A stretch of 64,000 nucleotides of DNA from an uncultured Mycoplasmatota bacterium. GTDB taxonomy: Bacteria > Bacillota_I > Bacilli_A > RF39 > UBA660. This document shows, one piece after another, positions 8,217-24,199 of this stretch (position 1 is the stretch's first letter; the number at the start of each line of letters is the position of its first letter). The notes beneath the pieces are model-generated. The model had not been told where the DNA came from, searched no databases, and was given only the letters and a program-made list of their open reading frames with translations. The position numbers and the translations under genes are program-made. Where the stretch lies: positions 4,778 to 68,777 of the forward strand of contig CAMSCJ010000010.1 in NCBI GenBank assembly GCA_947056845.1, given 5' to 3'.

Positions 8217-8224
8217 GGTAAAAT

Positions 8225-8250
8225 GCACGAAATGCATTTTTTCGTGCTTG
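8225..8250 (+). terminator. hairpin after the ATPase gene
   Basis: gcacgaaa (8225-8232) pairs with tttcgtgc (8240-8247). Only a short T tail follows. Confidence 0.45.
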
Positions 8251-8258
8251 AAAATCGA

Positions 8259-8287
8259 TTGCAAAAATTGTCAAAATATGGTAATAT
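8259..8287 (+). promoter_or_regulatory. sigma-A-type promoter candidate for agrA-agrC
   Basis: TTGCAA - 17 nt - TAATAT, about 60 nt upstream of ATG 8347. Confidence 0.4.
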
Positions 8288-8346
8288 TTACTAGTATAGG
8301 CCTAGGTTTGCTGGATGCAATTTTTTTATTTAATAGGAGTGATTAT

Positions 8347-9048
8347 ATGATTAATTTTATTGTTTGTGATGATAACAAAAATTTACTAGAAGATGTAGTA
8401 GAGCTTATTAACAAGTTAATGATGAAAAATCGACATGAATATAAGGTTCATGCCTTTACAGATTATAATGAAAAATTCATGAATATAATGAATGAAAAGC
8501 TATCATGTAAAATATATATATTAGATGTTGAGGTACCTAGCCAATCTGGCATTGATATTGCTAGGCAAATAAGGGATAAAGATGTCGATAGTGCTATAAT
8601 TTTCTTAACATTGCATAATGAGGTAGGACCAGTATTATTAAAAGAAGAAATTATGTTTTTGACGTTTATTTGTAAATTTGATAATGCTAATAGGAGATTA
8701 CAGTCAGCTATTAGCAAAGCTTTAGAACTTGTTGGCAAAAAGTTATCTGTTAGATTTGAAGATCAAGGTGCTATTTATACATTACCAGTAAAAGATATTA
8801 TTTATATTTTAACTGATACGATGGAAAGAAAAATTGTTATTAAAACAGATTATGCGCAATTTAGAGTATCTAAAACGCTTGTAGAAATGGAAAAACTATT
8901 ACCACATCAATTCAAACATTCACATAGAGCATGTATTGTTAATGTCGACCGAATTAGAATGATTGATAAAAAAAATAACACCATTATTTTTGATAATGAT
9001 GATATGGTTGATTTATTATCGAAAAGTTGTAGAAAGGAATTGGTGTAA
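8347..9048 (+). CDS. agrA: LytTR-family response regulator (AgrA-like)
   Basis: Receiver domain (FIVCDDN..., ILDVEVP) plus C-terminal LytTR-type DNA-binding domain (...FKHSHRACIVNVDRI). ATG 8347 follows AGGAG. The upstream part of ORF 8161..9048 overlaps the ATPase gene and its terminator. Confidence 0.85.
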   Translation: MINFIVCDDNKNLLEDVVELINKLMMKNRHEYKVHAFTDYNEKFMNIMNEKLSCKIYILDVEVPSQSGIDIARQIRDKDVDSAIIFLTLHNEVGPVLLKEEIMFLTFICKFDNANRRLQSAISKALELVGKKLSVRFEDQGAIYTLPVKDIIYILTDTMERKIVIKTDYAQFRVSKTLVEMEKLLPHQFKHSHRACIVNVDRIRMIDKKNNTIIFDNDDMVDLLSKSCRKELV

Positions 9049-10344
9049 GTGAAAATATTATTTGATTTTTTAGGTGCACTAATTTTATCTATATCAACCA
9101 CTTATGCTATTGGTAAAATAATGGATTTTTCTATTAAAAAAGTAGGTATTGTTAGATATATAATTGCGATATTAACACTATCAGTTTATTTAATTATCAG
9201 TTATCATAGTACTATGATTTTTTTAAGATACCTAATGTTCATTTTTGTAATACCACTAATTCTTATATCTATTATGAAAAGACAATTTAAAGAATCTTTT
9301 GTGACTAGCTTTTTGGCCTTTATTTTGATAGCCATATCTGAATTATTATTTGCTATATTTATATCATTTATACTAAAAACGGATATCGAAAACTTTTATG
9401 GAGTTTTGATTGGAAATATTGGCGTAGCTATAATTTTACTTATTTTAATAAAAATACCTAAATTATTGGATTTATTAAAAAGTTGGCTTGAAAAAATATC
9501 GACTTCTAAAAGGTATTATTTAATTGCTTTAATTGTTACTCTATGCTTTTCTATTAGTATAGTTGTATATATAAATTATTTTGATACAACTACTAGATTA
9601 AGATTTATTCTAAGTCTTATTGTAATTATAACTTATACAGTAATAACACTATTTTTATTTAATGAGAAGAATAATAGTAGCAAAATTCAGTATGAGTATG
9701 AGAATGCCTTAAATAACTTAAATGAATATGAAAAAATGCTTGATTTTCAGAAAGTCGCTAATCATGAAAATAAAAATCAACTATTAGTAATTAAAGGAAT
9801 GATAGATAAAAAAGATTCAAAAGTTAATGAATATATTGATAGTATAGTATTAGAAAAAAGTGAGGATAATGAAGATTTTTTATATCGCACTAATATTATT
9901 CCATCTGGCGGATTGCGAGGATTAGTTTATTACAAATTATTATCAATGAGAGAAAGAGGTATTAATATTAATTTAGATATTTCTAGCAAAGTACGAAAAA
10001 TAGAATTAGAAAAAATGGGAGTAGGATTAAATAAAGATTTATGTAAAATTATGGGCGTCATATTAGATAATGCTAAGAAAGCTGTAGAAGACTTAGAACA
10101 AAAAAATATCGATATAGCAATGAATTATATCGATAATGAGTTCGTTATAATAGTAGCAAATAATTTTGAAGGCGACTTAGATTTAAATGAAATGGATAAT
10201 ATTGGCTATACAACTAAAGGCAGTGGTCATGGATATGGCTTAGCTCTAATGAAACAGTTAATTGATAAAAATAGTCGTTTATATAACAAAAAAAATATAT
10301 ATGGACAGAAGTTTGTTCAAAAAGTAATATTGGATTTAAAATAA
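9049..10344 (+). CDS. agrC: AgrC-like (HPK10) sensor histidine kinase
   Basis: About 6 N-terminal TM helices. C-terminal GHKL ATPase with NAKKA (N-box) and GSGHGYGLAL (G-box). GTG start abuts the agrA stop. Confidence 0.8.
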   Translation: MKILFDFLGALILSISTTYAIGKIMDFSIKKVGIVRYIIAILTLSVYLIISYHSTMIFLRYLMFIFVIPLILISIMKRQFKESFVTSFLAFILIAISELLFAIFISFILKTDIENFYGVLIGNIGVAIILLILIKIPKLLDLLKSWLEKISTSKRYYLIALIVTLCFSISIVVYINYFDTTTRLRFILSLIVIITYTVITLFLFNEKNNSSKIQYEYENALNNLNEYEKMLDFQKVANHENKNQLLVIKGMIDKKDSKVNEYIDSIVLEKSEDNEDFLYRTNIIPSGGLRGLVYYKLLSMRERGININLDISSKVRKIELEKMGVGLNKDLCKIMGVILDNAKKAVEDLEQKNIDIAMNYIDNEFVIIVANNFEGDLDLNEMDNIGYTTKGSGHGYGLALMKQLIDKNSRLYNKKNIYGQKFVQKVILDLK

Positions 10345-10370
10345 AAAAACTGCAAAAATGCAGTTTTTTT
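10343..10370. terminator. bidirectional terminator shared by agrC and agrD
   Basis: A7-actgca-aaaa-tgcagt-T7. It overlaps the agrD stop codon (10369-10371). Confidence 0.75.
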
Positions 10371-10488
10371 ATTTTATAAGTGCTTTTGGGCATTCTGGTT
10401 CATCGATTACAAAAACGAAACAAGCACTACTTCCTAAAGAGGCAACAAATCCAGCAATTGAAGCGATTATTGAAGTTATAAATGACAT
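10369..10488 (-). CDS. agrD: AgrD-like autoinducing-peptide precursor (39 aa), absent from the ORF track
   Basis: Hand translation of the minus strand gives MSFITSIIASIAGFVASLGSSACFVFVIDEPECPKALIK. GGAGGAGG lies about 8 nt upstream. It sits 51 nt downstream of agrB. The layout is an amphipathic leader, a Cys+4 core and an acidic DEPE.PK.L tail, as in staphylococcal and clostridial AgrD. Confidence 0.75.
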   Translation of the reverse strand: MSFITSIIASIAGFVASLGSSACFVFVIDEPECPKALIK

Positions 10489-10539
10489 ATTAAATACCTC
10501 CTCCCTTTTATTCTATGTTTAAATAAAATTTAAACCATA

Positions 10540-11133
10540 TTATAAATATTTCTTATAATTGTTATAAGGCAATTTGAAAATGCGGTAAACGACAGGGGAT
10601 ATCATAAAACATTGCAAAATAATTGCTACTAATAAAGAATTAGCCCAAAAACTATCTTTAATAAATAAAGAACAAATAATCATACAAAGCGCTACCATAG
10701 TTGATATAACTTTTAAAAATAATCTTCTTTTTTTATTAATAATTGGTCTTTTATATGTATCTGCTGGTGCATTCTTGATAATGAATATCAAACCTATTAA
10801 TCCAATTGCTATTTTTAGATAATTTGGGATTTGAACCATTTTGCATACAACTGGAAGAACTATAAAAATTAATAATGATGATACTAAGCAAATCCAACTT
10901 TTTGTTGCATGTAGACCAAATGATGGTATTCTTATAAAATTATAGCATAAAAGAAAAATCAATGTTTCATGTATTAAACCTAATAAATATGAAACGGTTA
11001 AAATAACAATCATTTTTGTTATAAGAATATAGATTGATTCTAAACCATATTTTATAATTTCCAATCTTTCATCATCAAAATTATTATATTTTTGGATAAT
11101 TCCTAGTTGTTTATTTATGATAAAATCTCTCAT
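10540..11133 (-). CDS. agrB: AgrB-family AIP-processing membrane peptidase
   Basis: Polytopic 197 aa protein. FGLHATKSWIC has His and Cys 7 residues apart, like the catalytic H77/C84 spacing of S. aureus AgrB. Confidence 0.8.
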   Translation of the reverse strand: MRDFIINKQLGIIQKYNNFDDERLEIIKYGLESIYILITKMIVILTVSYLLGLIHETLIFLLCYNFIRIPSFGLHATKSWICLVSSLLIFIVLPVVCKMVQIPNYLKIAIGLIGLIFIIKNAPADTYKRPIINKKRRLFLKVISTMVALCMIICSLFIKDSFWANSLLVAIILQCFMISPVVYRIFKLPYNNYKKYL

Positions 11134-12353: not shown

Positions 12354-14849
12354 ATGAAATTTTTAAAAAAGATATTTGATCATGAATATAAAGAACTTGA
12401 AAGATTTAAAAGTATTGCTGATAAAATTGAAACATTAGATTCAAAAATGTCAAAGATGAAAGACGATGAATTAAAAAAACAAACAGAAATTTTTAAAGAC
12501 AGATTATCTAAAGGTGAGACACTAGATGATATTTTGGTTGAAGCTTTTGCAACAGCAAGAGAAGTTGCATATCGAGTATTAGGGGAAAAGCCATTTTATT
12601 CTCAGTTGTTAGGTGCCATTGCAATTCATGAAGGTAATATTGCAGAATTAAAAACAGGAGAAGGTAAAACTTTAACAACAACTTTGCCAGCTTATTTAAA
12701 TGCTTTAGAAGGTAAAGGTGTTCACGTTATTACTGTAAATGAATATTTAACAGAAAGAAATGCTGATTGGATGCGTGGAATTTATGAATTCTTGGGTATT
12801 ACTGTTGGTATTAATAAACATGACTTATCACCCAAAGAAAAAAAAGAAGCCTTTGACTGCGATATAACATATACAACAAATAATGAAATTGGTTTTGACT
12901 ATTTAAGAGATAATATGGTTGTCAAAGCTGAGAATCGTGTTTGCAGGGGATTAAATTATGCGATAATTGATGAAGTTGACTCAATTTTAATTGATGAGGC
13001 TAGAACACCATTGATTATTTCTGGTGGTGTTATGCAATCGGCTAATTTGTATGTTCAAGCTGATAGTTTTGTTAAGCATTTAAAGGAAAATTCTGGGTAT
13101 GTATATGATGAAAAGACTAAAGCTGTTGTATTAGATGAAAAAGGGATTGCTGAAGCTGAAAAGAATTTTAATATTGCCAATCTTTATGATATTCAAAATA
13201 CCAATTTGGTTCATTATATAAATCAAGCTTTGCGAGCTAATTATAGCATGAAAAGAGATATAGATTATGTTGTCTCTGATGGAAAAGTGGTTATCGTTGA
13301 CCCTTTTACTGGACGTTTAATGCAAGGCAGAACTTATTCTGATGGATTGCATCAAGCAATTGAAGCCAAAGAAAATGTAAGTATTCAGCAAGAGACTAAA
13401 ACTTTGGCGACCATTACCTTCCAAAATCTATTTAGAATGTATAATAAACTATCTGGAATGACTGGAACAGCAAAAACTGAGGAAGAGGAATTTAGAGATA
13501 TTTATAATATGTATGTTATTTGTATTCCGACCAATAAGCCAGTTATTCGTGAAGATTGTAAAGATTTGATTTTTGCTACTAAGGATGGCAAATATAAAGC
13601 AATTGCTAAAGAAATAAAGGAAAGGTACGATAAGGGGCAACCTGTTTTAGTAGGAACAATTGCTGTTGAAACTAGCGAATTAATTAGTAAACAACTTAGC
13701 AAAATGCATATTCCACATGAGGTCTTAAATGCTAAAAACCATGCTAGAGAAGCTGAGATAATTGCTAAAGCTGGTGAGAAAAAAGCTGTTACCATTGCAA
13801 CTAATATGGCTGGTCGTGGAACTGATATTAAATTAGGTGACGGTGTAAAAGAACTTGGTGGTTTATGCGTAATTGGAACTGAAAGGCATGAATCACGAAG
13901 AATTGATAATCAGTTAAGAGGTCGTTCAGGACGACAAGGAGATCCTGGTTTAACACAATTTTGTGTATCATTTGAGGATGAACTAATGGTTAGATTTGGA
14001 ACTGACAGGGTAAAACCTATGCTTCAAAGATTAGGATTTGATGGTGAAGCTTCTATTCATAATAAAATGTTGTCTAGTTCTATTGAATCGGCTCAAAAAC
14101 GGGTTGAAGGAAATAATTTTGATGTTCGTAAACAATTATTACAATATGATGATGTTATTAATCAACAAAGAAAAATAATTTATGAAAAAAGAAATATTAT
14201 TCTTGATAGTGAATCAATCCATGAGGTCATTTTAGAAAGTTTTAAAAATCATGTTAGTGATTTAGTCTATGCACATATTAACAGTGATAATAATAAGATG
14301 GCTGACAATGATTTAAGTGAAATGTTAGAGTCGATAAATGAACAATTTTTAAGTGTTGCTATATCTAAAGAAGGATTAGAAGATAAAAATATAGATGAAA
14401 TAATTGATTATATTTATGGTAGATTAGTTGATGAATATGAGCACAAGTTATCAACAGTTCCAGAAGAAATTACAAGAGAATTTGAAAAAGCTATTGCACT
14501 TAGAGTTATAGATACTCATTGGATGGAACATATTAATACGATGTCACATTTAAGAGAAGGTATACATCTAAGAGGTTATGCTCAGGAAAATCCATTACGT
14601 GCTTATACTAAAGAGGGATATGATTTATTTGATCAATTGTTGATGACAATCGATAGGGAAACAACTGTTTACTTAATGAAAGCTGAAATTCGCCAAAATA
14701 TTGAAAGAAAACAAGTAGTTAAGGGAGAAGCTGTTTCAAATAAAGAGAAAGAAACTAAATCTTCGCCAAAGAGGGTTTCTAAAGTTGGTAGAAATGAATT
14801 ATGTCCTTGTGGTTCGGGAAAGAAATATAAACAATGCTGTGGGAAATAA
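12354..14849 (+). CDS. secA: preprotein translocase ATPase SecA
   Basis: MKTGEGKTL Walker A, DEVDSILIDEARTPLIISG, GRGTDIKLG, RQLRGRSGRQGDPG, C-terminal zinc finger CPCGSGKKYKQCCG. ATG 12354 follows AGGAG. Confidence 0.95.
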   Translation: MKFLKKIFDHEYKELERFKSIADKIETLDSKMSKMKDDELKKQTEIFKDRLSKGETLDDILVEAFATAREVAYRVLGEKPFYSQLLGAIAIHEGNIAELKTGEGKTLTTTLPAYLNALEGKGVHVITVNEYLTERNADWMRGIYEFLGITVGINKHDLSPKEKKEAFDCDITYTTNNEIGFDYLRDNMVVKAENRVCRGLNYAIIDEVDSILIDEARTPLIISGGVMQSANLYVQADSFVKHLKENSGYVYDEKTKAVVLDEKGIAEAEKNFNIANLYDIQNTNLVHYINQALRANYSMKRDIDYVVSDGKVVIVDPFTGRLMQGRTYSDGLHQAIEAKENVSIQQETKTLATITFQNLFRMYNKLSGMTGTAKTEEEEFRDIYNMYVICIPTNKPVIREDCKDLIFATKDGKYKAIAKEIKERYDKGQPVLVGTIAVETSELISKQLSKMHIPHEVLNAKNHAREAEIIAKAGEKKAVTIATNMAGRGTDIKLGDGVKELGGLCVIGTERHESRRIDNQLRGRSGRQGDPGLTQFCVSFEDELMVRFGTDRVKPMLQRLGFDGEASIHNKMLSSSIESAQKRVEGNNFDVRKQLLQYDDVINQQRKIIYEKRNIILDSESIHEVILESFKNHVSDLVYAHINSDNNKMADNDLSEMLESINEQFLSVAISKEGLEDKNIDEIIDYIYGRLVDEYEHKLSTVPEEITREFEKAIALRVIDTHWMEHINTMSHLREGIHLRGYAQENPLRAYTKEGYDLFDQLLMTIDRETTVYLMKAEIRQNIERKQVVKGEAVSNKEKETKSSPKRVSKVGRNELCPCGSGKKYKQCCGK

Positions 14850-14910
14850 TTTCATAAATTTTTATAAATTATAGAAAACTGTATAGACAGATTAGTGAAG
14901 AAAGTAAAAA

Positions 14911-14940
14911 GTCAACATTCGATAATGTTGGCATTTTTTT
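14911..14940 (+). terminator. secA terminator
   Basis: gtcaacatt-cgat-aatgttggc followed by T7. Confidence 0.7.
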
Positions 14941-15281
14941 CGTTTACTAGCAAATTTAATTATATTGGTTATATATTAGATTATCGCAACCATTTACTAA
15001 CAAAATATTGGCATATACTTCTTAAAAACTATATGTCGAGTGTTTTAAAAGCTGTTAGTCTTAAAATAGGCAGATTAAAAAGCTTACATTACTTATATCA
15101 AAAAATTAGAATAAATAAAAATTTCTTTATTATGGTTTTATAAAAGGTGATAGTAATAACCAATTTTAGATTAAAGTTATAAAAAATACAATATCAATAT
15201 TGTGTTTTTCTTTAAAGTAATTATCTAGTATTTTTAACTACTAAAAATAAATGTATCATATTACGAGAAAGGAGAAAGATT

Positions 15282-16388
15282 ATGAGAGAAGATATTGAAA
15301 ACATTTATTCAAGAAAGGATGGAAGATTTGAAATTAGATACCATTATGGATATAAAGAAGATGGTACATCTAATTATAAATCTGTATATGGTAGTAGCGA
15401 AAAAGAGGTTATAGAAAATTACAATCAAAAAATTGAAAGGTTAATTAGTGAAAATGATTTATTGATATTTGACAAGTCATATATTGGTTATGATATTTAT
15501 ACATGGCTGAATAATTCGAAAATAAAAAATAAGAGATCAACTAATTCTAATTATCAATATACTTTAAATGCGAGATTAATTCCAAAGTTTGCAAAAGTTA
15601 AAAAGAAAGCATTATCTTTAGAATTGATAAATAAATTTACGACAGATTTATTAGCTGAAGGCTTAGCGCCAAAAAGTATAAAAGATATATTAATAATTCT
15701 ACAACAAATACTAAAAAATGGAGGAACAGATATAAAAATTCCAATGCCTAAAGTACCTAAAGTTGAAATTCAAATATTAAAAAAAGAAGATCAAGCAAAA
15801 TTAGAAAGTAAATTACTTCAAAAGTTAGATACAACTACTTTTGGAATATACTTTTGTCTTTATACTGGTTTGCGTATTGGTGAACTATGTGCTTTGCAAT
15901 GGAAGAATATTGATATAGAAAATAAAAAAATATATGTTAATAAAACGCTTGTGAGAATACAAAATCCAGATAAGGATTCTAAAAAGAAAACTATCATTAT
16001 AATAGATGAACCAAAGTCAACGTCATCAATTAGAGAAATACCTATACCACATTTTTTACTATCCATTATAATTCAACTTGCTAAAGATATTACCCCTGAT
16101 ACATTTTTAATATCTGGCACTTCTAAATTTATTGAGACAAGAACCTATTTTAATAGGTATAAAAAAATTTTAAAAAAAACTAATTTAGACACCTATAACT
16201 TTCATGCTTTAAGGCATACATTTGCTACTAGATGTATAGAGAATGGCTTTGATCCTAAAACTTTAAGCGAGATATTGGGACACTCTAGTGTGAAAATCAC
16301 ATTAGAAAGATATGTACATCCTAGTTATGAAAATAAGGTTATTATGATGAATAATTTAAAACCAATGCTTAATGAGAATATTTCATAA
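15282..16388 (+). CDS. tyrosine-type site-specific recombinase/integrase
   Basis: LYTGLRIGELCAL (catalytic R), HALRHTFATRCIENG (HxxR), GHSSVKITLERYVH (H...Y). N-terminal SAM-like domain. RBS AAGGAG. Confidence 0.85.
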   Translation: MREDIENIYSRKDGRFEIRYHYGYKEDGTSNYKSVYGSSEKEVIENYNQKIERLISENDLLIFDKSYIGYDIYTWLNNSKIKNKRSTNSNYQYTLNARLIPKFAKVKKKALSLELINKFTTDLLAEGLAPKSIKDILIILQQILKNGGTDIKIPMPKVPKVEIQILKKEDQAKLESKLLQKLDTTTFGIYFCLYTGLRIGELCALQWKNIDIENKKIYVNKTLVRIQNPDKDSKKKTIIIIDEPKSTSSIREIPIPHFLLSIIIQLAKDITPDTFLISGTSKFIETRTYFNRYKKILKKTNLDTYNFHALRHTFATRCIENGFDPKTLSEILGHSSVKITLERYVHPSYENKVIMMNNLKPMLNENIS

Positions 16389-16633
16389 TTTTATATATGA
16401 TATGGTCTTTTTTTCTTTTTATAAGAGATAAAATGCCTATGCTAATTATTCTTAAAGTTTATAACTTTGTGATTTTTTGCATAAAAATTGCTATTATAAT
16501 AACATTTTTTCCCAAAATAAGCAATATTTAAACATTATTTTTTTGTCAGAATTATTAAATCTATATATTTTTACTAAACCATAACACAACTATCTATAAG
16601 TTATAAACTTGTAGAAAGATTGAGGAGAAAAAC

Positions 16634-18163
16634 ATGAAGTATGATGATTTATTCATAGAGTCAGGTAAACTTCCTAAACCATTATCAAAGAAAGAAATAT
16701 ATTCTTATTTAGAACAATATAAGTGTGGAAATTTAAAAGCTAGGGAGCAAGTAATAATTCATAATATTAGATTGGTATTGCATCAAGTAAATAAAAAGTT
16801 TGCAAATACACCTTATGATAAAAAAGAATTAGTCTCAATAGGAATAGTAGGTTTAATAAAAGGTGTAGATACATTCGATACTGATAAAAATTTTGAATTT
16901 GCTACATATGCAATAAGATGTATCGATAATGAAATATTAATGTTTCTAAGAAAAGGGAAAAAATCTGCTTTTGACCAAAGTATTAATACTCCAATAGGAA
17001 TAGATAATGATGGAAATGAAAAAAGGATAGAGGATATTTTAGAAGATGAGGCATCAGATTTTGCTTTAGAATATGAAAATCAAATTACTTATAATGAAGT
17101 GAGGGAAATCGTTTATAGTTTACCAGATAGAGATAGAGAAATAGTATTACTTCATTTTGGATTTGTTGATGATCATATATATACACAAAAAGAAATTGCG
17201 GATAAGCTAAAAATCTCTCAGTCGTATGTATCAAGGTTGATAGGAAAAATTGTTGCCAAAATAGGAATACAATTGCAAAAAAGTGGTGTAATGGAAACCG
17301 CTGGTAACCGAACTAAAAATATAAAATTAAATAAATCATCACAAACATCTAATGTTGTGCCTATAATAGATATCCAACCACAAGAAATGTTAGAGAATGT
17401 TAACCAAGATAAGGGTTTTAGAGAAAAATCTAGTATAAATGGAGAAGAAAGGAATTTTAAAAAAATGAAAGGTAAAAAATTACAATCAATATATGAATAC
17501 CTAAAAGGATATACAAGGAAAGAAATAGATATAATGTTAAGCAAATTAACAGAGGAGGAAATGTCTTTAGTAAGATTAAGATATGGTGACAATTTAGATA
17601 ATCCAGTTGCTTCATCAACATGGGGAAAAGAAGAAACAAGAAAATTTTATGGTAGTTTAATCCCTAAGATGAAAAGATTATTATCTAATCCAGAAGGAAA
17701 GAGAAAAAAATATACTAAAAGAACACAAAATATTTCAGGCGCAAATAATCAATCTAGTATTCTTTTATCAGAAGAACCAAAAGTAGAAGAAGTAACTCAA
17801 CCAGAATTGATTTCACAAAAAGTTGAAGATTCAAAAACAATTTTGCCTCAAACAACTTCAGAAATAGAAAAAGATGATTGTTTGAAAATTTTAGAATTAA
17901 TGAGAACACCAAGTTTTGGGGAAATGTTAAAATCATTAACACCAAAAGATGCAATAATAATTTGCTTAAAATTAGGATATGTAGATGGAAAATATTTTAC
18001 AACAGAGTCAGTAGCAGGTTTTTTAGGAATAGAAACAAGTGAAGTCATAGAAACTACAAAAAAGGTATTATTAGTTTATAAAGAAAATATAAATCAATTT
18101 ATTGATAAAGCTGTTGAAGTTGCAACAGGCTCTTCTTTAGTTTTAAAAAAGAAGGAAAATTAA
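16634..18163 (+). CDS. SigE/SigK-like sigma-70 family factor with a ~290 aa C-terminal extension
   Basis: Residues about 10-215 look like a complete sporulation-type sigma: LPKPLSKKE, HNIRLV, SIGIVGLIKGVDTFD, FATYAIRCIDNEILMFLR, region 4 HTH QKEIADKLKISQSYVSRLIGKI. The extension carries two further region-4-like segments: LTEEEMSLVRLRYGDNLDNP and LTPKDAIIICLKLGY...ESVAGFLGIETSEVIETTKKVL. Confidence 0.8.
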   Translation: MKYDDLFIESGKLPKPLSKKEIYSYLEQYKCGNLKAREQVIIHNIRLVLHQVNKKFANTPYDKKELVSIGIVGLIKGVDTFDTDKNFEFATYAIRCIDNEILMFLRKGKKSAFDQSINTPIGIDNDGNEKRIEDILEDEASDFALEYENQITYNEVREIVYSLPDRDREIVLLHFGFVDDHIYTQKEIADKLKISQSYVSRLIGKIVAKIGIQLQKSGVMETAGNRTKNIKLNKSSQTSNVVPIIDIQPQEMLENVNQDKGFREKSSINGEERNFKKMKGKKLQSIYEYLKGYTRKEIDIMLSKLTEEEMSLVRLRYGDNLDNPVASSTWGKEETRKFYGSLIPKMKRLLSNPEGKRKKYTKRTQNISGANNQSSILLSEEPKVEEVTQPELISQKVEDSKTILPQTTSEIEKDDCLKILELMRTPSFGEMLKSLTPKDAIIICLKLGYVDGKYFTTESVAGFLGIETSEVIETTKKVLLVYKENINQFIDKAVEVATGSSLVLKKKEN

Positions 18164-18376
18164 GTAATACCATATTTATAAAAAATAATAATATTGGTCT
18201 GAATTTAATTATATAATTGATACTAATTATTAAACAATAAAAAATCACAAAGTAAATCACTTGTAGAAAAAAATGATTAAAAAATCATGTTTTTACTGTT
18301 AATTTAGTAAAACATAAGAAAATTATTGATTTTTTTAATAAAAAAGTGTATTATAAATGTCAAATTTGGTGTAAAA

Positions 18377-18407
18377 AAAATCACAAAGTGATTTACTTTG
18401 TGATTTT
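18377..18407. promoter_or_regulatory. perfect 13-bp inverted repeat (operator or 5'-UTR hairpin) 14 nt upstream of the TPR operon start
   Basis: aaaatcacaaagt-gattt-actttgtgatttt. The same 13-mer recurs at 18241-18253 and, reverse-complemented, at 16464-16476 upstream of the sigma gene. Confidence 0.45.
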
Positions 18408-18421
18408 ACTAAAGGAGGTTA

Positions 18422-19426
18422 ATGATGGAGATTATATCAAGTGAAAAAGATGCCTACTTTAAAGGAATAGAATTTTGGAATAATAATGATTATAGAAATG
18501 CTCGTTATTATTTTGAGATGGCTTATAAATATCATGGCCAATTTGGAGATTTATCCTTATCTCGATTAATTCAAATAGATTTAAGAGAAGGAAAATATGC
18601 AAATGCAAGAAGTCTTTTAAAGAATAATCAAAGTAATGTTATAGAATTTAAACAAGTATATGGATTATTAGAAAATATAGAAAATAATTTTGAGAGAAGT
18701 AAAACCTATTACAGCCAATGTATGGCCGATCCATATATGCAAAATAAATCATTACTCGCTATATCAAAGTTATATATTCAGACAGGGGATAATGAGATTG
18801 CAAGAAAAATGTTAGAAACTCTACAATTAAATAGGGAGTTTTATACTCAATCTACAATTGGTTTAGTATGCTTAAATATACTTGAGCAGAATTATAAAGA
18901 CGCTTATAAATATTTAAAATCGATAAATTTTAAGCTCTTGACACCAAAATTGCTTCATCATTATAAAATACTAGAAATGTATTTGCTTAAAAATTTAGGG
19001 AAATTAAGACAATCAGATAATAGTTTTGATCCAGTAAAAGATTATATGATATATCGTTTGTTTGACGATAGTGAAGACTTGCTTTTGAGTCATATAAGTA
19101 AACACATGAATCAAAGGGAAAAATCTACGAATGGGTGTTTTTTCAAATATATTGATTTAAAAAAGTTATTAATAGATGCTAGAGAAAAAATAGAGAACAT
19201 GAACTCAAATCATTTTGAAGTTTCAGATATGTATAGATTTAGATTAGACACACCAATTGGTTTTAAGGGTGATAAAGAAACTTGTGATTTATGTGTTGTT
19301 ACTATGATTGGAACAAAAGACATTTTAACAATGTATCCTGTTTTATTATCTGATGAATTTGATAGAGAAGGTATGCTTGAAAGTAAAGACCTTTTACTAA
19401 AAAAACAAGGAGGAGTTAGAAAATGA
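18422..19426 (+). CDS. TPR-repeat protein with an uncharacterised C-terminal domain
   Basis: N-terminal TPR-like helices (GIEFWNNNDYRNARYYFEMAYKY...). C-terminal ~130 aa has no motif I recognise. RBS AAGGAGG. The stop overlaps the next start (ATGA). Confidence 0.55.
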   Translation: MMEIISSEKDAYFKGIEFWNNNDYRNARYYFEMAYKYHGQFGDLSLSRLIQIDLREGKYANARSLLKNNQSNVIEFKQVYGLLENIENNFERSKTYYSQCMADPYMQNKSLLAISKLYIQTGDNEIARKMLETLQLNREFYTQSTIGLVCLNILEQNYKDAYKYLKSINFKLLTPKLLHHYKILEMYLLKNLGKLRQSDNSFDPVKDYMIYRLFDDSEDLLLSHISKHMNQREKSTNGCFFKYIDLKKLLIDAREKIENMNSNHFEVSDMYRFRLDTPIGFKGDKETCDLCVVTMIGTKDILTMYPVLLSDEFDREGMLESKDLLLKKQGGVRK

Positions 19427-21993
19427 TAAATGAGGAAAATTTAAATAAGCTGTATAATGGGTTAATAGATGAAAAAGAATTGACTACAAAAGAATTAAAT
19501 AGTTATGGCTTTAATTCAAGGGATTTAGCTGATCTAATTAATGATGGAGTTATTGAAAGAATTAAAAGGGGCTATTACTCATTTTTATCCATAGATAATT
19601 TGTTTTATTATGGGAAACAACTTATTGCTTTAAAAGAATATGATAAAGCAACTGCGTGTTTTGAGAAATGTTATGAATTAAATCCAAATCATCTAGGTGC
19701 TTGTTTTCAATTGTTTTTAAGAGCTGTTCAATCAAGAGACTATTCAAAGGCATTTGCATATTTTGAACATTTTTATAATAGTGATAATGAATATTATAAT
19801 AATGATAGTAATTTTTATTTATATTTACTCAGTATGATAACAGAAATTCCTGAACATCATAGAGAATATGCTAAATACTTAAAATTAGATGATATTAAAA
19901 TTGATTTTAATGATAAGCGCTTTGAAGACCCATATTCCCAAAATAAAGTTAGAATATCTGCATTAAATCAAAAGTTTACCTTAGCTTATAAACAACTTAC
20001 TGAGTTAATTAAACAACATAGAAGATTTAGTGTTCAAGATATTATTGTAAGGACACTATTATCTCAGGCAATAGAAGTACAAAATGATATAAAAAAGAGT
20101 ATAATTAATTTAGTTACAGAAAAGAAATATGATGAAATAATATTTCGTTTAGAGGAAATACAAAACCAGCGTCATTTAAGTGTTGCAGATGAATGTATAT
20201 TATTTCTAGCAAGAGAAATTTCTAAATTAGAAGAAACAGGAATTATTCCAAAAAAAGAAGTGGTTTCTACACATAAATTATTTGAAGCTATTAATGGCAA
20301 GAATTTTGAACTTGCTTTATCTTTAAGTAAAGAATATATCGAAAGAAATAATATAAATCCAAGTGATAATGCCATGGTTATGTTGCTTAAAGATATAACA
20401 GAATTAATGGAAATGAAAACTAATAAATCTAATGAACAACCAGTAGCAATACCACCCACGAAGAAAGTTGAAACCGTAGCTACTAGAGAAGAAATAAATC
20501 CTGAGACAAATACTGCTTTTACGAAAAGTAATATAACTTTTGCTACGGTTATTGGTTATTTAATAAAACAAGATTTTGACAATTCATTTAGAGCATTAAG
20601 AGAATATTTGAATGATATTAATAAGAGTCAATATGAATTTTTAATTATCGATTTAATTAAAATAAGTTTAATAGAACAAGATATGGCTTTTTCAAAGCCA
20701 ATGATAGCTTTAACTTATGTAAGTAGAGAAAATCTTAATTTTGATATTTCTGAATATATTAAAAATTTTTATGAATCATTAGCACAAAATAAATTTTTAG
20801 AGGCAAGAATATATTTAGATATTATTTCAAATTCTAATAAACTAGGACAAGATTGTATTCTTACTGAGAATTTAGAGCAAGTATTAAATATTACCGAAAA
20901 AATGCTGAATTATAAAAGAAATAATGATGTTTTAGATAGAGTAGATGCCTCTATAAAAACATTAGAGCAAGAACCAATAATTCAAATACCTATTCAACAA
21001 AAAATGGTTGAAACTTCTGCACAACAGCCAATTTCGAGTACATCTATATATAGTGATGATGAAACCATTGAACTATATGAAATTATAGATTCTACTGTTT
21101 TCCCAGTTACACCAAAAAAAGCAAATTTAGAAACACCAAATAACGCTTATAATGATTCTGAATTTATCAAGGGAAAGTTAAATGAATTATATAAAAAGGG
21201 GATTATATTATTGAAACCAATGAATGATAGTAGAAGACAGAAAATACACGATATAGTAAAAGAAATTCCAGATATAGTATCATTTAGTATTGAGACTGAT
21301 GTAGGTAGGCAAATAGTTTTAAGATTTAAGCCATTTATAGATGAATATGTTGATTTATCAACCATCGCTAAGGAAGGAAATAGGGCCTATAGTGAAGGAG
21401 AATATGGTAATTGTATAGGAGCATATAGAGATATATTAAAATTTGGTACACCAAAAGCATGGGTATATGCCAAATTGGGATTAGCTTATATGAAAAAATT
21501 TAATAAAGAAACAGCAATCGATTACCTAACAGTTGCTACTGCACTTTCAAAAGAAGAACAAACTGATTTTGATTTTACTGATTTAATTGCATCTTTAAAA
21601 GGTTTAATAGATCCTGAAGATAAAAAACCAAGAGTTAGAATGACAACTAAAGATTTTGATAATGATACTGAAAAATATTATGGAATAGAAAATATGTATG
21701 AATTAGCTGAATTAATAGTTTCTGGTATTAGTATTGATGATGCATGTGTATCTTTAGGATTAAATGATGAGCAAAAAGCAATAGCAACTTTAGTTTTGGC
21801 AAGAGAAAGTTATACACAAGGAAACTATGCAATGGGTGACCAATATTTAAAAAAAGTAGAAAGAATAAAAAATAAAACTAAATTTGTAATTTCACTATCT
21901 GAGGAAATAAGAAGAAATAAAAAATTCTATAAAAACAGAGTTGATGAAAATCATAAATCGTTAGTTTTAACTTTAAATCAAAAAAATAATTAG
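19423..21993 (+). CDS. large multi-domain protein: N-terminal wHTH (AbiEi-like), TPR arrays, internal R3H-like segment
   Basis: N-terminus LNSYGFNSRDLADLINDGVIERIKRGYYSF. TPR-like repeats (YDKATACFEKCYELNPNH...). LKPMNDSRRQKIHDIVKEIPDIVSFSIETDVGRQIVLRF contains R-x3-H (codons at about 21235-21249). No P-loop seen. Confidence 0.55.
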   Translation: MINEENLNKLYNGLIDEKELTTKELNSYGFNSRDLADLINDGVIERIKRGYYSFLSIDNLFYYGKQLIALKEYDKATACFEKCYELNPNHLGACFQLFLRAVQSRDYSKAFAYFEHFYNSDNEYYNNDSNFYLYLLSMITEIPEHHREYAKYLKLDDIKIDFNDKRFEDPYSQNKVRISALNQKFTLAYKQLTELIKQHRRFSVQDIIVRTLLSQAIEVQNDIKKSIINLVTEKKYDEIIFRLEEIQNQRHLSVADECILFLAREISKLEETGIIPKKEVVSTHKLFEAINGKNFELALSLSKEYIERNNINPSDNAMVMLLKDITELMEMKTNKSNEQPVAIPPTKKVETVATREEINPETNTAFTKSNITFATVIGYLIKQDFDNSFRALREYLNDINKSQYEFLIIDLIKISLIEQDMAFSKPMIALTYVSRENLNFDISEYIKNFYESLAQNKFLEARIYLDIISNSNKLGQDCILTENLEQVLNITEKMLNYKRNNDVLDRVDASIKTLEQEPIIQIPIQQKMVETSAQQPISSTSIYSDDETIELYEIIDSTVFPVTPKKANLETPNNAYNDSEFIKGKLNELYKKGIILLKPMNDSRRQKIHDIVKEIPDIVSFSIETDVGRQIVLRFKPFIDEYVDLSTIAKEGNRAYSEGEYGNCIGAYRDILKFGTPKAWVYAKLGLAYMKKFNKETAIDYLTVATALSKEEQTDFDFTDLIASLKGLIDPEDKKPRVRMTTKDFDNDTEKYYGIENMYELAELIVSGISIDDACVSLGLNDEQKAIATLVLARESYTQGNYAMGDQYLKKVERIKNKTKFVISLSEEIRRNKKFYKNRVDENHKSLVLTLNQKNN

Positions 21994-21998
21994 AAAAG

Positions 21999-22022
21999 CA
22001 AAGATAAACTTCTTTGTTTTTT
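21999..22022 (+). terminator. terminator after the TPR operon
   Basis: caaaga-taaact-tctttg followed by a T-run. Confidence 0.5.
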
Positions 22023-22203
22023 ACTTTATTTCAAATCTTTTGTAGTTTTAGGGTATCATCGATACAAATTCAATATCTTTTTATTAAATGACTAATTGAC
22101 TTTTATGTTAATATATTGAAAAATATCCAAATATACGGTATACTCATTATAGTTTTTGAATGCCACAAATTTGGTAGATGTCGTATAGAGAGGAGATATT
22201 TGT

Positions 22204-22752
22204 ATGAAAATCTTAATTATAAATGGCTCACCTCATAGTAACGGAGACACGAACTATATATTAAAGAAAATAAAAGAAAAGTATCCAAAAGAAACTGAGT
22301 TTGAACAATTAATATTATATAAAGAAAATATAAAGCCTTGTATGGATTGTAGATACTGTTGGAAAAATCGTGGTTGTGCTATACATGATAAAATGGATAT
22401 TATTTGGAAAGATGATTATGATATTGTAATCTTGGCATCTCCCATTTATATGTTTAATGTAACACCACCAGTATTTTCATTAATTACAAGATTAAATATG
22501 CTATGGTGTAATAATTTTTTTCAAAAGAGGAACTTAAAATTAAGGGAAAAAAGAGGAATACTTGTTTTAGTTGGTGGAGGAAATGATGCACCAACTCATG
22601 CTATTGATATGGCGAAACTTACATTTAATTTTCTAAATGCAAAATTTGATTTGAAAAATGATTATATTTATTCTTTGAATACAAATGATATTGCTGCAAA
22701 AGAAGATGAAAATGTAACTAAGTTAATAAATAGAGTAATTGGTATAAATTAA
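22204..22752 (+). CDS. flavodoxin-like NAD(P)H-dependent FMN reductase / iron-sulfur flavoprotein-like
   Basis: MKILIINGSPHSNGDT FMN-binding N-terminus and a Cys cluster CMDCRYCWKNRGC. Confidence 0.65.
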   Translation: MKILIINGSPHSNGDTNYILKKIKEKYPKETEFEQLILYKENIKPCMDCRYCWKNRGCAIHDKMDIIWKDDYDIVILASPIYMFNVTPPVFSLITRLNMLWCNNFFQKRNLKLREKRGILVLVGGGNDAPTHAIDMAKLTFNFLNAKFDLKNDYIYSLNTNDIAAKEDENVTKLINRVIGIN

Positions 22753-22794
22753 AAATATTTACAATTTTAAATTTTTATTAAGTGAGGGGATAAA

Positions 22795-23406
22795 ATGACT
22801 AATAAAGGAATAAAAGATATATTAAATCAAATCAAAGAATTGTCAGGTAAGGAAAGAAGAGAGTTAACTTACGAACAGATTAAAAACATTATGGAATCAT
22901 TATCATCTGATGAAATTATTGAATTAAGTAATATTATAGGTTATCCAGTCTTTACAAGATTGTGCATGAATGAACTTAAGCATAAATTTGTTTTATTACA
23001 GGATGGGGCTTCAGCCATTATTGTTAATAATCAAAATCAAATATTGCTACAAAGTAGAGCAGATAGAGACATGTGGGGTCTTCCTGGAGGATGCCAAGAA
23101 TTAGGCGAAAGATTCGAAGATACAATAATTAGAGAAGTAAAAGAAGAAACAAATTTAGATGTTAAAGAAGAAGATTTAGAACTTATCGAAATTGTTTCTG
23201 GTGGCTCTAGGAGAAACAGTTATCCTAATGGTGATGTCGTTATAAATAATACTGTATTATATTGTATAAAGAATTATTCCGGCGTATTAAAATGGGATAA
23301 TGAATCAAAGGAGATGAAATTCTTTGATTTAGATAATTTACCAGCAAATAAAATTGATGGTGATTTAATTGATATATATTTAAAGTATAATATTAAAAAA
23401 AGATAA
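22795..23406 (+). CDS. NUDIX hydrolase
   Basis: Nudix box GLPGGCQELGERFEDTIIREVKEETNL. Confidence 0.85.
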   Translation: MTNKGIKDILNQIKELSGKERRELTYEQIKNIMESLSSDEIIELSNIIGYPVFTRLCMNELKHKFVLLQDGASAIIVNNQNQILLQSRADRDMWGLPGGCQELGERFEDTIIREVKEETNLDVKEEDLELIEIVSGGSRRNSYPNGDVVINNTVLYCIKNYSGVLKWDNESKEMKFFDLDNLPANKIDGDLIDIYLKYNIKKR

Positions 23407-23443: not shown

Positions 23444-24199
23444 ATGATACTTAATATGAATAATAATCTATTTATAAAAAAAGTAATTTTTGATAGAGAA
23501 AAAGTTGATGATTTTGACAAATACCCATTTAATATAGATATTATTAAGGGTTTTGATGAAATAGAATTTGAAAAGCCAGTTACTTTTTTAGTAGGTGAAA
23601 ATGGTGTTGGTAAGTCGACTTTTATTGAAGCACTTGCTGTATCTACCGGTTTAAACGCTGAAGGCGGTACACAAAACTTCAATTTTCATACTAAAGATAC
23701 GCATTCCATACTTTCTAAATATATTAAAGTTGCAAAATATGGGAAGCCTAAAACTAAATTTTTTTTAAGAGCCGAAAGTTTTTATAATTTTTCAACAGAG
23801 ATACAAAGATTGGTAGAGGAAGATTCCTATCATACATTATATAATGCTTATGGTGGAAATTTGCACGAATGTTCACATGGCGAATCATTTATAAAGTTAG
23901 TTCAAAATCGTTTTACAGAAAATGGACTATACATTTTAGATGAACCAGAAGCAGCATTATCCCCACAAAGACAGATGAGCTTATTATGTTTAATTGACGA
24001 TTTAGTTAAAAACGGTTCTCAATTTATTATTGCAACGCATTCACCAATTTTGATTTCTTATATTAATGGTAAAATTTTAGATTTGAATAATGATTTTAAA
24101 GAAATAAAATACGAGGAAACAGATATATATAAGATATATAAACTGTACTTAGATAATGCTTATGGCATGCAAAAAAGATTATTTAATGATGGTCTATAA
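23444..24199 (+). CDS. stand-alone ABC/SMC-like AAA ATPase
   Basis: Walker A GENGVGKST, signature-like SHGESF, Walker B YILDEPEAALSP, ATHSP. No adjacent permease. The start is ambiguous (ATG 23444 or 23456). Confidence 0.7.
   Translation: MILNMNNNLFIKKVIFDREKVDDFDKYPFNIDIIKGFDEIEFEKPVTFLVGENGVGKSTFIEALAVSTGLNAEGGTQNFNFHTKDTHSILSKYIKVAKYGKPKTKFFLRAESFYNFSTEIQRLVEEDSYHTLYNAYGGNLHECSHGESFIKLVQNRFTENGLYILDEPEAALSPQRQMSLLCLIDDLVKNGSQFIIATHSPILISYINGKILDLNNDFKEIKYEETDIYKIYKLYLDNAYGMQKRLFNDGL

Follow-up and report, generated by a model that had tools for sequence, protein, structure and literature searches.

Invertible promoter segments beside an integrase-type recombinase gene point to a phase-variable regulatory module in an uncultured gut bacterium

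In Escherichia coli, the promoter-bearing invertible element fimS lies beside the genes of the tyrosine recombinases FimB and FimE and sets transcription of an operon ON or OFF, and in Bacteroides there are many independent invertible promoters with a consensus repeat, among them the capsule loci under Mpi and switches under Tsr tyrosine recombinases. We describe here a locus 3′ of secA in a 64-kb stretch (GC ~26%) of contig CAMSCJ010000010.1 from an uncultured Mycoplasmatota bacterium; this whole stretch is hereafter called the window. Past secA and its terminator lie four co-oriented open reading frames (ORFs), which encode a tyrosine recombinase (Int), a sigma factor and two tetratricopeptide repeat (TPR) proteins, TprS and TprL, and the intergenic regions upstream of the sigma gene and of tprS each hold a short segment with a candidate promoter between inverted recombination sites. 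The initial annotation of this DNA had read the four genes as an integrase-linked island of about 6.7 kb. We put at roughly 0.78 the probability that the locus is instead a phase-variable regulatory module with invertible promoters, and we regard the existence of such switches (invertons) at this locus as highly probable.

Like fimS, the locus places invertible elements that appear to bear promoters beside a tyrosine recombinase gene; fimS, however, is a single switch with a surface structure as its target, its recombinases are about 200 aa long and lack an N-terminal arm-type domain, and the cargo here is a sigma factor and TPR regulators. With the invertons of Bacteroides and of gut bacteria it shares independently flipping promoters, a consensus inverted repeat and combinatorial states, whereas Mpi is a serine recombinase, the Bacteroides targets are mostly surface polysaccharides and proteins and are dispersed over the genome, and the phylum is a different one. 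The closest known system is the set of switches run by the tyrosine recombinase RecV in Clostridioides difficile. Its flagellar switch (Cdi4) is 154 bp long with 21-bp inverted repeats, was found through a strain that aligned only as the reverse complement, and is one of several switches that RecV serves (PMC5386303). The RecV-controlled switches include the flagellar, cwpV, cmrRST and pdcB switches, with regulators among the targets and sigD affected indirectly (PMC5386303, PMC6837544 and PMC9286219). Both systems occur in a gut Firmicute and combine short invertible segments, several switches and a tyrosine recombinase, here a candidate. They differ in that the RecV inverted repeats have no common consensus (PMC5386303), whereas the sites described here combine one half-site consensus with private spacers; the RecV switches are scattered, whereas here they stand in tandem directly 3′ of the recombinase gene, with up to seven in a sister species. 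The enzyme is also of a different make, a 368-aa integrase-type protein, and the segments here have recognisable −35 and −10 elements, whereas the flagellar switch acts after initiation, via Rho (PMC7446863). The locus thus adds to a known kind of inverton; its cargo is uncharacterised.

The sequence AATCACAAAGT occurs in the window in four mismatch-free copies, which are confined to the two intergenic regions. Each of these regions carries a segment of 149–156 bp between inverted AAGT-N5-ACTT cores (16455-16610 and 18250-18398), and a strict pair search found exactly two such inverted pairs in the 64 kb, against 0.00–0.02 in shuffled sequences. Specifically, the cores match perfectly over 13 nt at both switches, and at the tprS switch the perfect match extends to 22 nt (18241-18262 and 18386-18407), as recovered by a repeat search that also returned the related pair upstream of the sigma gene. 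Related loci, which we refer to by L numbers, come from metagenome-assembled genomes of uncultured gut “Bacilli” (human, rabbit, mouse and chicken samples), and a scan of JGI metagenomes yielded four loci only, two of the four being decisive. All 20 of 20 switch instances from five genomes have one architecture, with segments of 149–171 bp and sites composed of an outer half-site (A/T)TC(A/T)(C/T)AAAGT, an asymmetric 5-nt spacer and an inner half ACTT(T)G(A/T)GAT. Within a genome each switch has a private spacer: TTATA (sigma) and AAATC (tprS) in the window, and GCATT, TTAAA, TAAAA, ATGAT, TAATC, GTAAT and AATCT in a related species, species B (L040, L041 and L009). Tyrosine-recombinase core sites have this layout. 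Tyrosine recombinases such as Cre and Flp require partner sites to have identical spacers; with one private spacer per switch, recombination should stay between the two ends of that switch, and spacer identity would enforce the orthogonality of the switches. The initial annotation had noticed motifs common to both intergenic regions and had taken them to bind the sigma gene and the TPR operon into one functional unit; the motifs are real and non-random, and they do link the sigma gene to the TPR operon, but not as shared regulation, since they are the inverted repeats at which crossover takes place.

Two further features resemble these sites. A lone AAGTAAATTACTT core lies inside the int coding region (15806-15818) with a spacer one base off that of the tprS switch and no inverted partner, and is probably there by chance. 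We also considered a 13-bp hairpin followed by UUUU in the ON-state tprS leader as an attenuator and set it aside, because species B and another species, species C, have a degenerate outer half-site and do not conserve the hairpin; most likely it is nothing more than the palindrome of the recombination site.

Inversion of the segments is directly visible between natural contigs. Upstream of tprS, L009 and the window can be aligned only with about 150 bp reverse-complemented. Within species B, whose contigs are 97–99.7% identical, L040 and L041 (both from human gut) hold the tprS segment in opposite orientations between collinear flanks, and four segments (177, 165, 151 and 175 bp) are inverted among the three contigs, again with collinear flanks and with junctions within the cores. 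Each of these four segments lies directly upstream of a transcription unit, and their states vary independently between contigs. In species C, there is 100% identity over 1.2–8.5 kb between contigs of different samples, apart from the exact inversion of a 159-bp sigma segment and a 162-bp tprS segment; here the sigma switch was found seven times OFF and twice ON, the tprS switch five times ON and three times OFF, and three of the four sigma/tprS combinations were seen. In the window's own species, L044 and L045 (99.9% identical to the window, with collinear flanks) carry the tprS segment inverted, and over L045 2203-2315 the sequence is 100% identical to window 18407-18295, the left junction being precisely the one predicted for an L/R crossover. 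The recurrence of the same exact inversions across independent samples, assemblers and species makes an assembly artefact unlikely. That the window's sigma switch can invert is suggested by its orthologues in species B and species C, which occur in both orientations, and inversion would presumably be reversible within a clone.

Some switches have decayed or been interrupted. In L044 (7720-7772) and L045 (2315-2368), the inverted tprS switch is broken after 113 nt by a sequence that is absent from the window (TGTAGTGTTACAATTGATGTGACACC...), and both contigs, although they come from two independent samples, end 53 nt past that break; the sequence looks like a multi-copy insertion, such as an insertion sequence, within the OFF-oriented switch. 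Switches without an adjacent int are mostly degenerate, ON-locked remnants. In one species (L006, L007 and L010), a frameshift at one and the same position breaks tprS in all three contigs (~8998-10001 in L006), with TprL intact and the upstream switch degenerate.

Across species the segments keep −35/17/−10 elements with a TGn motif, directed at the gene in one of the two orientations, although promoter calls of this kind are weak alone at 26% GC. At the tprS switch, species B, species C and L013 conserve the hexamers but not the sequence of the spacer between them, and the sigma-facing promoters of ON forms read TTGACA-16-TATCAT in species B (L009) and TTGTAA-17-TGgTATTAT in species C. Because the promoter in its tprS segment faces tprS, the window would be tprSL-ON; the orientation of its sigma switch was assigned by comparing the switch ends with the ON form of species B (L009) and the ON and OFF forms of species C, and by these comparisons the window as assembled reads as sigma-OFF, tprSL-ON. 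The same comparison of switch ends led us to reject a direct repeat, D3 (GTGATT-17-TATTAT, plus strand), as a sigma-facing promoter. In species C (L057-L065, ~1213-1415), the sigma switch sits between the sigma gene and a divergent gene made solely of ~75-aa repeats, a repeat described below; because the OFF orientation faces the divergent gene, the switch there may be a toggle between sigma and the repeat protein rather than an ON/OFF device. Seven species C contigs begin at the identical base within this repeat-only gene.

In the mechanism that we propose, each of the two short segments would carry an outward-reading sigma-A-type promoter between inverted recombination sites, and a site-specific tyrosine recombinase would invert the segment by crossover within the spacer. 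The most probable invertase is Int, an intact enzyme of the integrase type whose gene precedes the first switch by 67 bp. A promoter turned towards its downstream gene or genes would transcribe them (ON); turned round, it would read backwards (OFF). With their private spacers, the two units would flip independently, and two switches would give four expression states for sigma and the TprS–TprL pair. The features of the locus are collected in Table 1.

Table 1. Features of the locus, in window coordinates; promoter states are predictions
Feature	Position	Strand	Details
secA intrinsic terminator	14911..14940	+	left boundary; hairpin 14911-14932 and T-run; terminator scan, fold z = -3.9
AT-rich hairpin and U-run in the secA/int gap	15182..15210	+	12-bp stem, fold z = -4.3; terminator- or operator-like
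int, tyrosine recombinase, 368 aa	15282..16388	+	integrase-type, candidate invertase; PF00589 7.8e-28
sigma inverton	16449..16617	.	cores AAGTTTATAACTT (16455-16467) and AAGTTATAAACTT (16598-16610), spacer TTATA
predicted promoter within sigma inverton	16496..16524	-	TTGCTT-17-TGtTATTAT; directed away from sigma, antisense to int; predicted OFF as assembled
sigma factor, 509 aa	16634..18163	+	Pfam Sigma70_r2 and Sigma70_r4
tprS inverton	18243..18405	.	cores AAGTAAATCACTT (18250-18262) and AAGTGATTTACTT (18386-18398), spacer AAATC
predicted promoter within tprS inverton	18326..18354	+	TTGATT-17-TGtATTAT; directed towards tprS; predicted ON as assembled
tprS, TPR protein, 334 aa	18422..19426	+	N-terminal TPR solenoid and small C-terminal beta domain
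tprL, 856 aa	19423..21993	+	wHTH - TPR - R3H-like alpha/beta domain - TPR; translationally coupled to tprS
terminator hairpin and U-run 3′ of tprL	21993..22028	+	right boundary; hairpin ~21993-22022; -11.8 kcal/mol, z = -4.1

In species B the arrangement is longer, with seven candidate tandem invertons 3′ of int (L041 1374-14187; L040 4819-12798), each before its own cassette. The first three cassettes encode two uncharacterised proteins with Amidoligase_2 and GGACT, a fusion of the ~75-aa repeat with HTH and metallophosphoesterase domains, and a 153-aa protein; the fourth to seventh encode sigma, TprS–TprL, a 409-aa Tad4-domain protein (PF25186, 4.6e-21), and a GNAT protein with a 393-aa protein. 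The two contigs L040 and L041 differ by the presence or absence of the 3.4-kb first cassette adjoining int. A tentative generalisation, to which we give distinctly less than even odds, is that spacer-addressed invertons in tandem, two in the window and up to seven in the sister species, are under the control of a domesticated Tn916/Tn1549-type integrase, with each inverton gating one regulatory cassette. Were this so, a clonal population would have as many as 2^n transcriptional programmes open to it, its private spacers would amount to natural ‘orthogonal lox variants’ that prevent deletion or scrambling of the array, and as a whole the array might be an occasionally mobile ‘phase-variable regulatory island’ that exchanges cassettes.

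The enzyme encoded next to the switches is, by its profile matches (PF00589, 97.8 bits; PHROG_1 integrase, 1e-52), its best PDB match (Tn1549 Int, 6en0, 1e-17) and a complete catalytic set (R198, H308-x-x-R311, H334, Y344), a Tn1549-Int-like member of the tyrosine recombinase superfamily. Like the integrases of Tn916 and Tn1549, it has an N-terminal extension of about 80 aa where arm-binding domains sit; unlike in those elements, transposon ends, Xis and conjugation genes are absent, and the sites are paired, inverted and about 150 bp apart. It is not Xer-type, as its best NCBIfam match, XerA, scores 87.8 bits against a cut-off of 220, and XerC, XerD and XerS fall below their cut-offs too. Its nearest annotated relatives are phage and integrative and conjugative element (ICE) ‘site-specific integrases’ at no more than 38% identity, and its viral relatives are distant only. 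Orthologues with 70–77% identity adjoin the locus in L002, L014 and L040/L041, making four species with that of the window, and an inverton starts 54–80 bp past the int stop codon in the window, in L040/L041 and in L014. The interspecies identity of Int is close to that of SecA (62–72%), which suggests vertical descent. As the shared motifs are crossover sites and both orientations occur in nature, the recombinase is better read as a phase-variation invertase, and from the co-localisation of gene and sites, as well as the decay of most switches that have no int beside them, we favour, on balance, Int as the invertase of these switches. A tblastn search found no paralogue of int in the window; serine recombinases were not screened.

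Several observations count against this assignment or against the wider interpretation. No int is present in the species C contigs, which reach roughly 1.4 kb upstream and, in the longest, about 8 kb downstream, yet their switches are active, so that the enzyme can act in trans or another recombinase may be responsible. Conversely, L002 has int next to decayed sites, and in L014 int is frameshifted. In the four contigs of the window's own species, the sigma switch occurs in one orientation only. A consensus promoter scan at 26% GC found 54 promoters where 58 were expected, and is weak alone. Finally, orientations were read from consensus assemblies of different samples, which do not by themselves show reversibility or rate.

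The initial annotation had suggested that the four genes could be a minimal integrative element. Under this explanation Int would integrate and excise the 6.7-kb block as a unit whose sigma and TPR regulators rewire the host, the invertons being either an additional layer or a further activity of Int. The integrase-type profile and structure matches of Int and its phage and ICE relatives agree with such an element; so does the presence of the sigma/tprS/tprL block in many chromosomal contexts among species whose TprL is 70–80% identical, as does the 3.4-kb cassette beside int by which species B strains differ, and the widely differing neighbours elsewhere could reflect mobility in the distant past or frequent rearrangement. 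However, int is missing beside most of the relocated cargo copies, and the divergence of int, similar to that of SecA, is what vertical descent would produce; besides the window, TprL lies within 10 kb of secA in L002, L008/L011, L020 and L022 (there convergent). An examination of the secA 3′ flank, which the annotation had proposed as a check for insertion polymorphism and att sites, found no empty site among the three to four same-species contigs, all of which carry secA–int–sigma; a look-up of the downstream FMN-reductase product gave no match, and one of SecA returned block-bearing contigs only. No att repeats were found between 14800 and 22300, where direct repeats amounted to AT-rich chance matches, the best of them 78–81% identical over 27–36 nt and having one copy within tprL; neither direct repeats nor a target duplication are left by integration of the Tn916 type. 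GC is 0.23–0.28 both inside and outside the block with no break in GC or skew, the nearest tRNA is 7 kb off so that no tRNA target is nearby, and Xis, a relaxase and a replication gene are absent from the Pfam and PHROG matches. TprL has no relatives in IMG/VR, among INPHARED phages or among PLSDB plasmids. A present-day integrative element is not supported by these results, and we consider this explanation unlikely.

Much less probable still is the annotation's other proposal, a decayed prophage regulatory arm, in which an integrase and a phage sigma factor would be left after the loss of structural genes. The N-terminal 200 residues of the sigma factor are indeed about 40% identical to sigma factors of Bacillus phages and of uncultured ‘Bacteriophage sp.’ contigs, and the sigma factor also matches PHROG_351. 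In species B, genes of the XRE-type HTH kind directly precede int, and the array includes a Tad4 (anti-Thoeris) domain protein. Yet no phage match spans more than 55% of the sigma factor, from which it follows that its C-terminal extension is absent from phages. The sigma factor has no match in IMG/VR, neither it nor TprL has relatives on viral contigs, and neither TprS nor TprL matches a PHROG. The extended sigma factors number more than 417 homologues, many of them on long contigs (up to 436 kb), and the genes are intact and conserved. The sites could also be operators for an HTH regulator, such as the winged helix-turn-helix (wHTH) of TprL, with the inversions as incidental homologous recombination; palindromic half-sites that flank or overlap promoters have classic operator geometry, and TprL does carry its wHTH at the N-terminus. 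We hold this to be the least probable explanation of all, since RecA-type recombination between 13–22-bp repeats is very rare whereas exact inversions were found repeatedly, at several distinct switches in many samples and three species, and since the crossover always falls in the core, with private asymmetric spacers that are a hallmark of tyrosine recombinases and not of operators. Roles as operator and as recombination site are nevertheless compatible and not mutually exclusive, and invertible promoters remain our preferred interpretation of the locus.

The sigma factor itself is composite. Residues 7–216 are SigK/SigE-like and cover almost the whole of either family model, and the best PDB match is sigma-K (8vjl). 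It is nonetheless not a member of SigK or SigE, as its NCBIfam scores lie below the equivalog cut-offs (SigK, 206.5 bits against 252 and 197.4 against 298.65; SigE, 197.8 against 339) and the pro-sequence is absent, the alignment beginning only at model position 22–34. A further difference is a C-terminal extension of about 290 aa (residues ~220–509), with one ~75-aa repeat and a terminal region-4-like segment, that has no match in any annotated sigma factor compared. The ~75-aa unit (nt 17471-17710, residues ~280–359) gives as its only Pfam signal a weak, partial match to the start of region 4 (Sigma70_r4). It belongs to an apparently undescribed repeat family of 724 cluster representatives (E <= 1e-3), with up to 19 tandem copies per protein. 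In seven of the ten top matches checked, the repeat follows a complete SigA-like sigma factor (r1.2-r2-r3-r4), as in the 1415-aa protein P0360, which has ten copies; it is also found fused to HTH-metallophosphoesterase and in repeat-only proteins within inverton arrays. In a distant species (L024 12679-17416), several tandem sigma paralogues with variable numbers of C-terminal repeats lie 3′ of tprL.

The AlphaFold2 (AF2) model of TprS (pLDDT 91.2, pTM 0.89) shows a TPR solenoid and a small beta domain, and that of TprL (pLDDT 75.7) the domain order given in Table 1. The wHTH (AbiEi_4, 23.3 bits) and R3H (19.7 bits) matches of TprL fall below the Pfam cut-offs but recur in the Pfam matches of many homologues and fit the AF2 secondary structure, in keeping with the wHTH and R3H labels given in the initial annotation. 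The comparison of structures and profiles that it had recommended for the cargo supports TprS and TprL as TPR proteins without naming a function for them: fold searches of PDB and BFVD went no further than generic TPR scaffolds (PilW, NatA and APC among them), and a profile search against PDB only designed or consensus TPRs. TprS is not of the RRNPP type, as it has no HTH and its fold searches returned no PlcR, Rap or AimR. Homologues of TprS number 119, all in one lineage, and relatives of TprL more than 244; about 30 GTDB species carry the pair. The two genes occur together throughout the lineage and usually overlap, as they do in some 20 species-level loci, and a sigma gene adjoins the pair, upstream or downstream, in roughly one third of loci.

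For the functions of the cargo that had been thought conceivable, sporulation hijacking and defence, we found no evidence. PADLOC matched the cargo at domain level only (AbiEi over a 35-residue wHTH, MzaA over region 2), with no AbiEii or Mza partners adjacent, and NCBIfam, Pfam, PHROGs and PADLOC contained nothing structural, conjugative, toxic or nucleolytic for the cargo, which agrees with the earlier statement that it has no recognisable capsid, terminase, relaxase, toxin, nuclease or NTPase and is regulatory in appearance throughout. Our guess is that the sigma factor redirects RNA polymerase to some as yet unnamed regulon, that TprS and TprL form a nucleic-acid-binding (DNA or RNA) scaffold that modulates or contacts the repeat-bearing sigma factor, and that the cargo as a whole might be a phase-variable alternative transcription programme.

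For a module first described as an integrase plus regulators, the switches would provide a concrete and testable mechanism, in which stochastic ON/OFF inversion of DNA controls an alternative sigma factor together with a conserved pair of regulators in uncultured gut Bacilli. Sites that combine a common half-site with private spacers should be useful for studying how one recombinase keeps adjacent switches independent, and are a possible source of orthogonal recombination sites. For annotation, an integrase beside non-mobile cargo and repeated intergenic motifs is a reason to check for invertons before calling an island, and invertible switches would account for breaks between contigs in metagenome assemblies. 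What the cargo does, in turn, would tell what these bacteria hedge their bets on.

As to the layout of the locus, the four gene calls and their co-orientation are as the initial annotation had them, the ATGA overlap of the TPR genes at 19423-19426 can be read directly in the sequence, and the terminators after secA and after tprL are supported by scan and folding (Table 1). An Rfam scan of 14000-23000 gave no RNA family at E <= 1. Just upstream of csp-hpf-secA lies an agr-type quorum-sensing locus (8161-11133), with AgrB (10540-11133, minus strand), a histidine kinase and a LytTR response regulator in the gene table of the identical contig L056, in which a 39-aa small ORF is also present. On the other side of the locus, 3′ of NUDIX and FMN-reductase genes, the window encodes a 251-aa AAA_15/AAA_21 ATPase of the OLD/AbiEii-like family (23444-24199), which could be a fragment of a defence gene.

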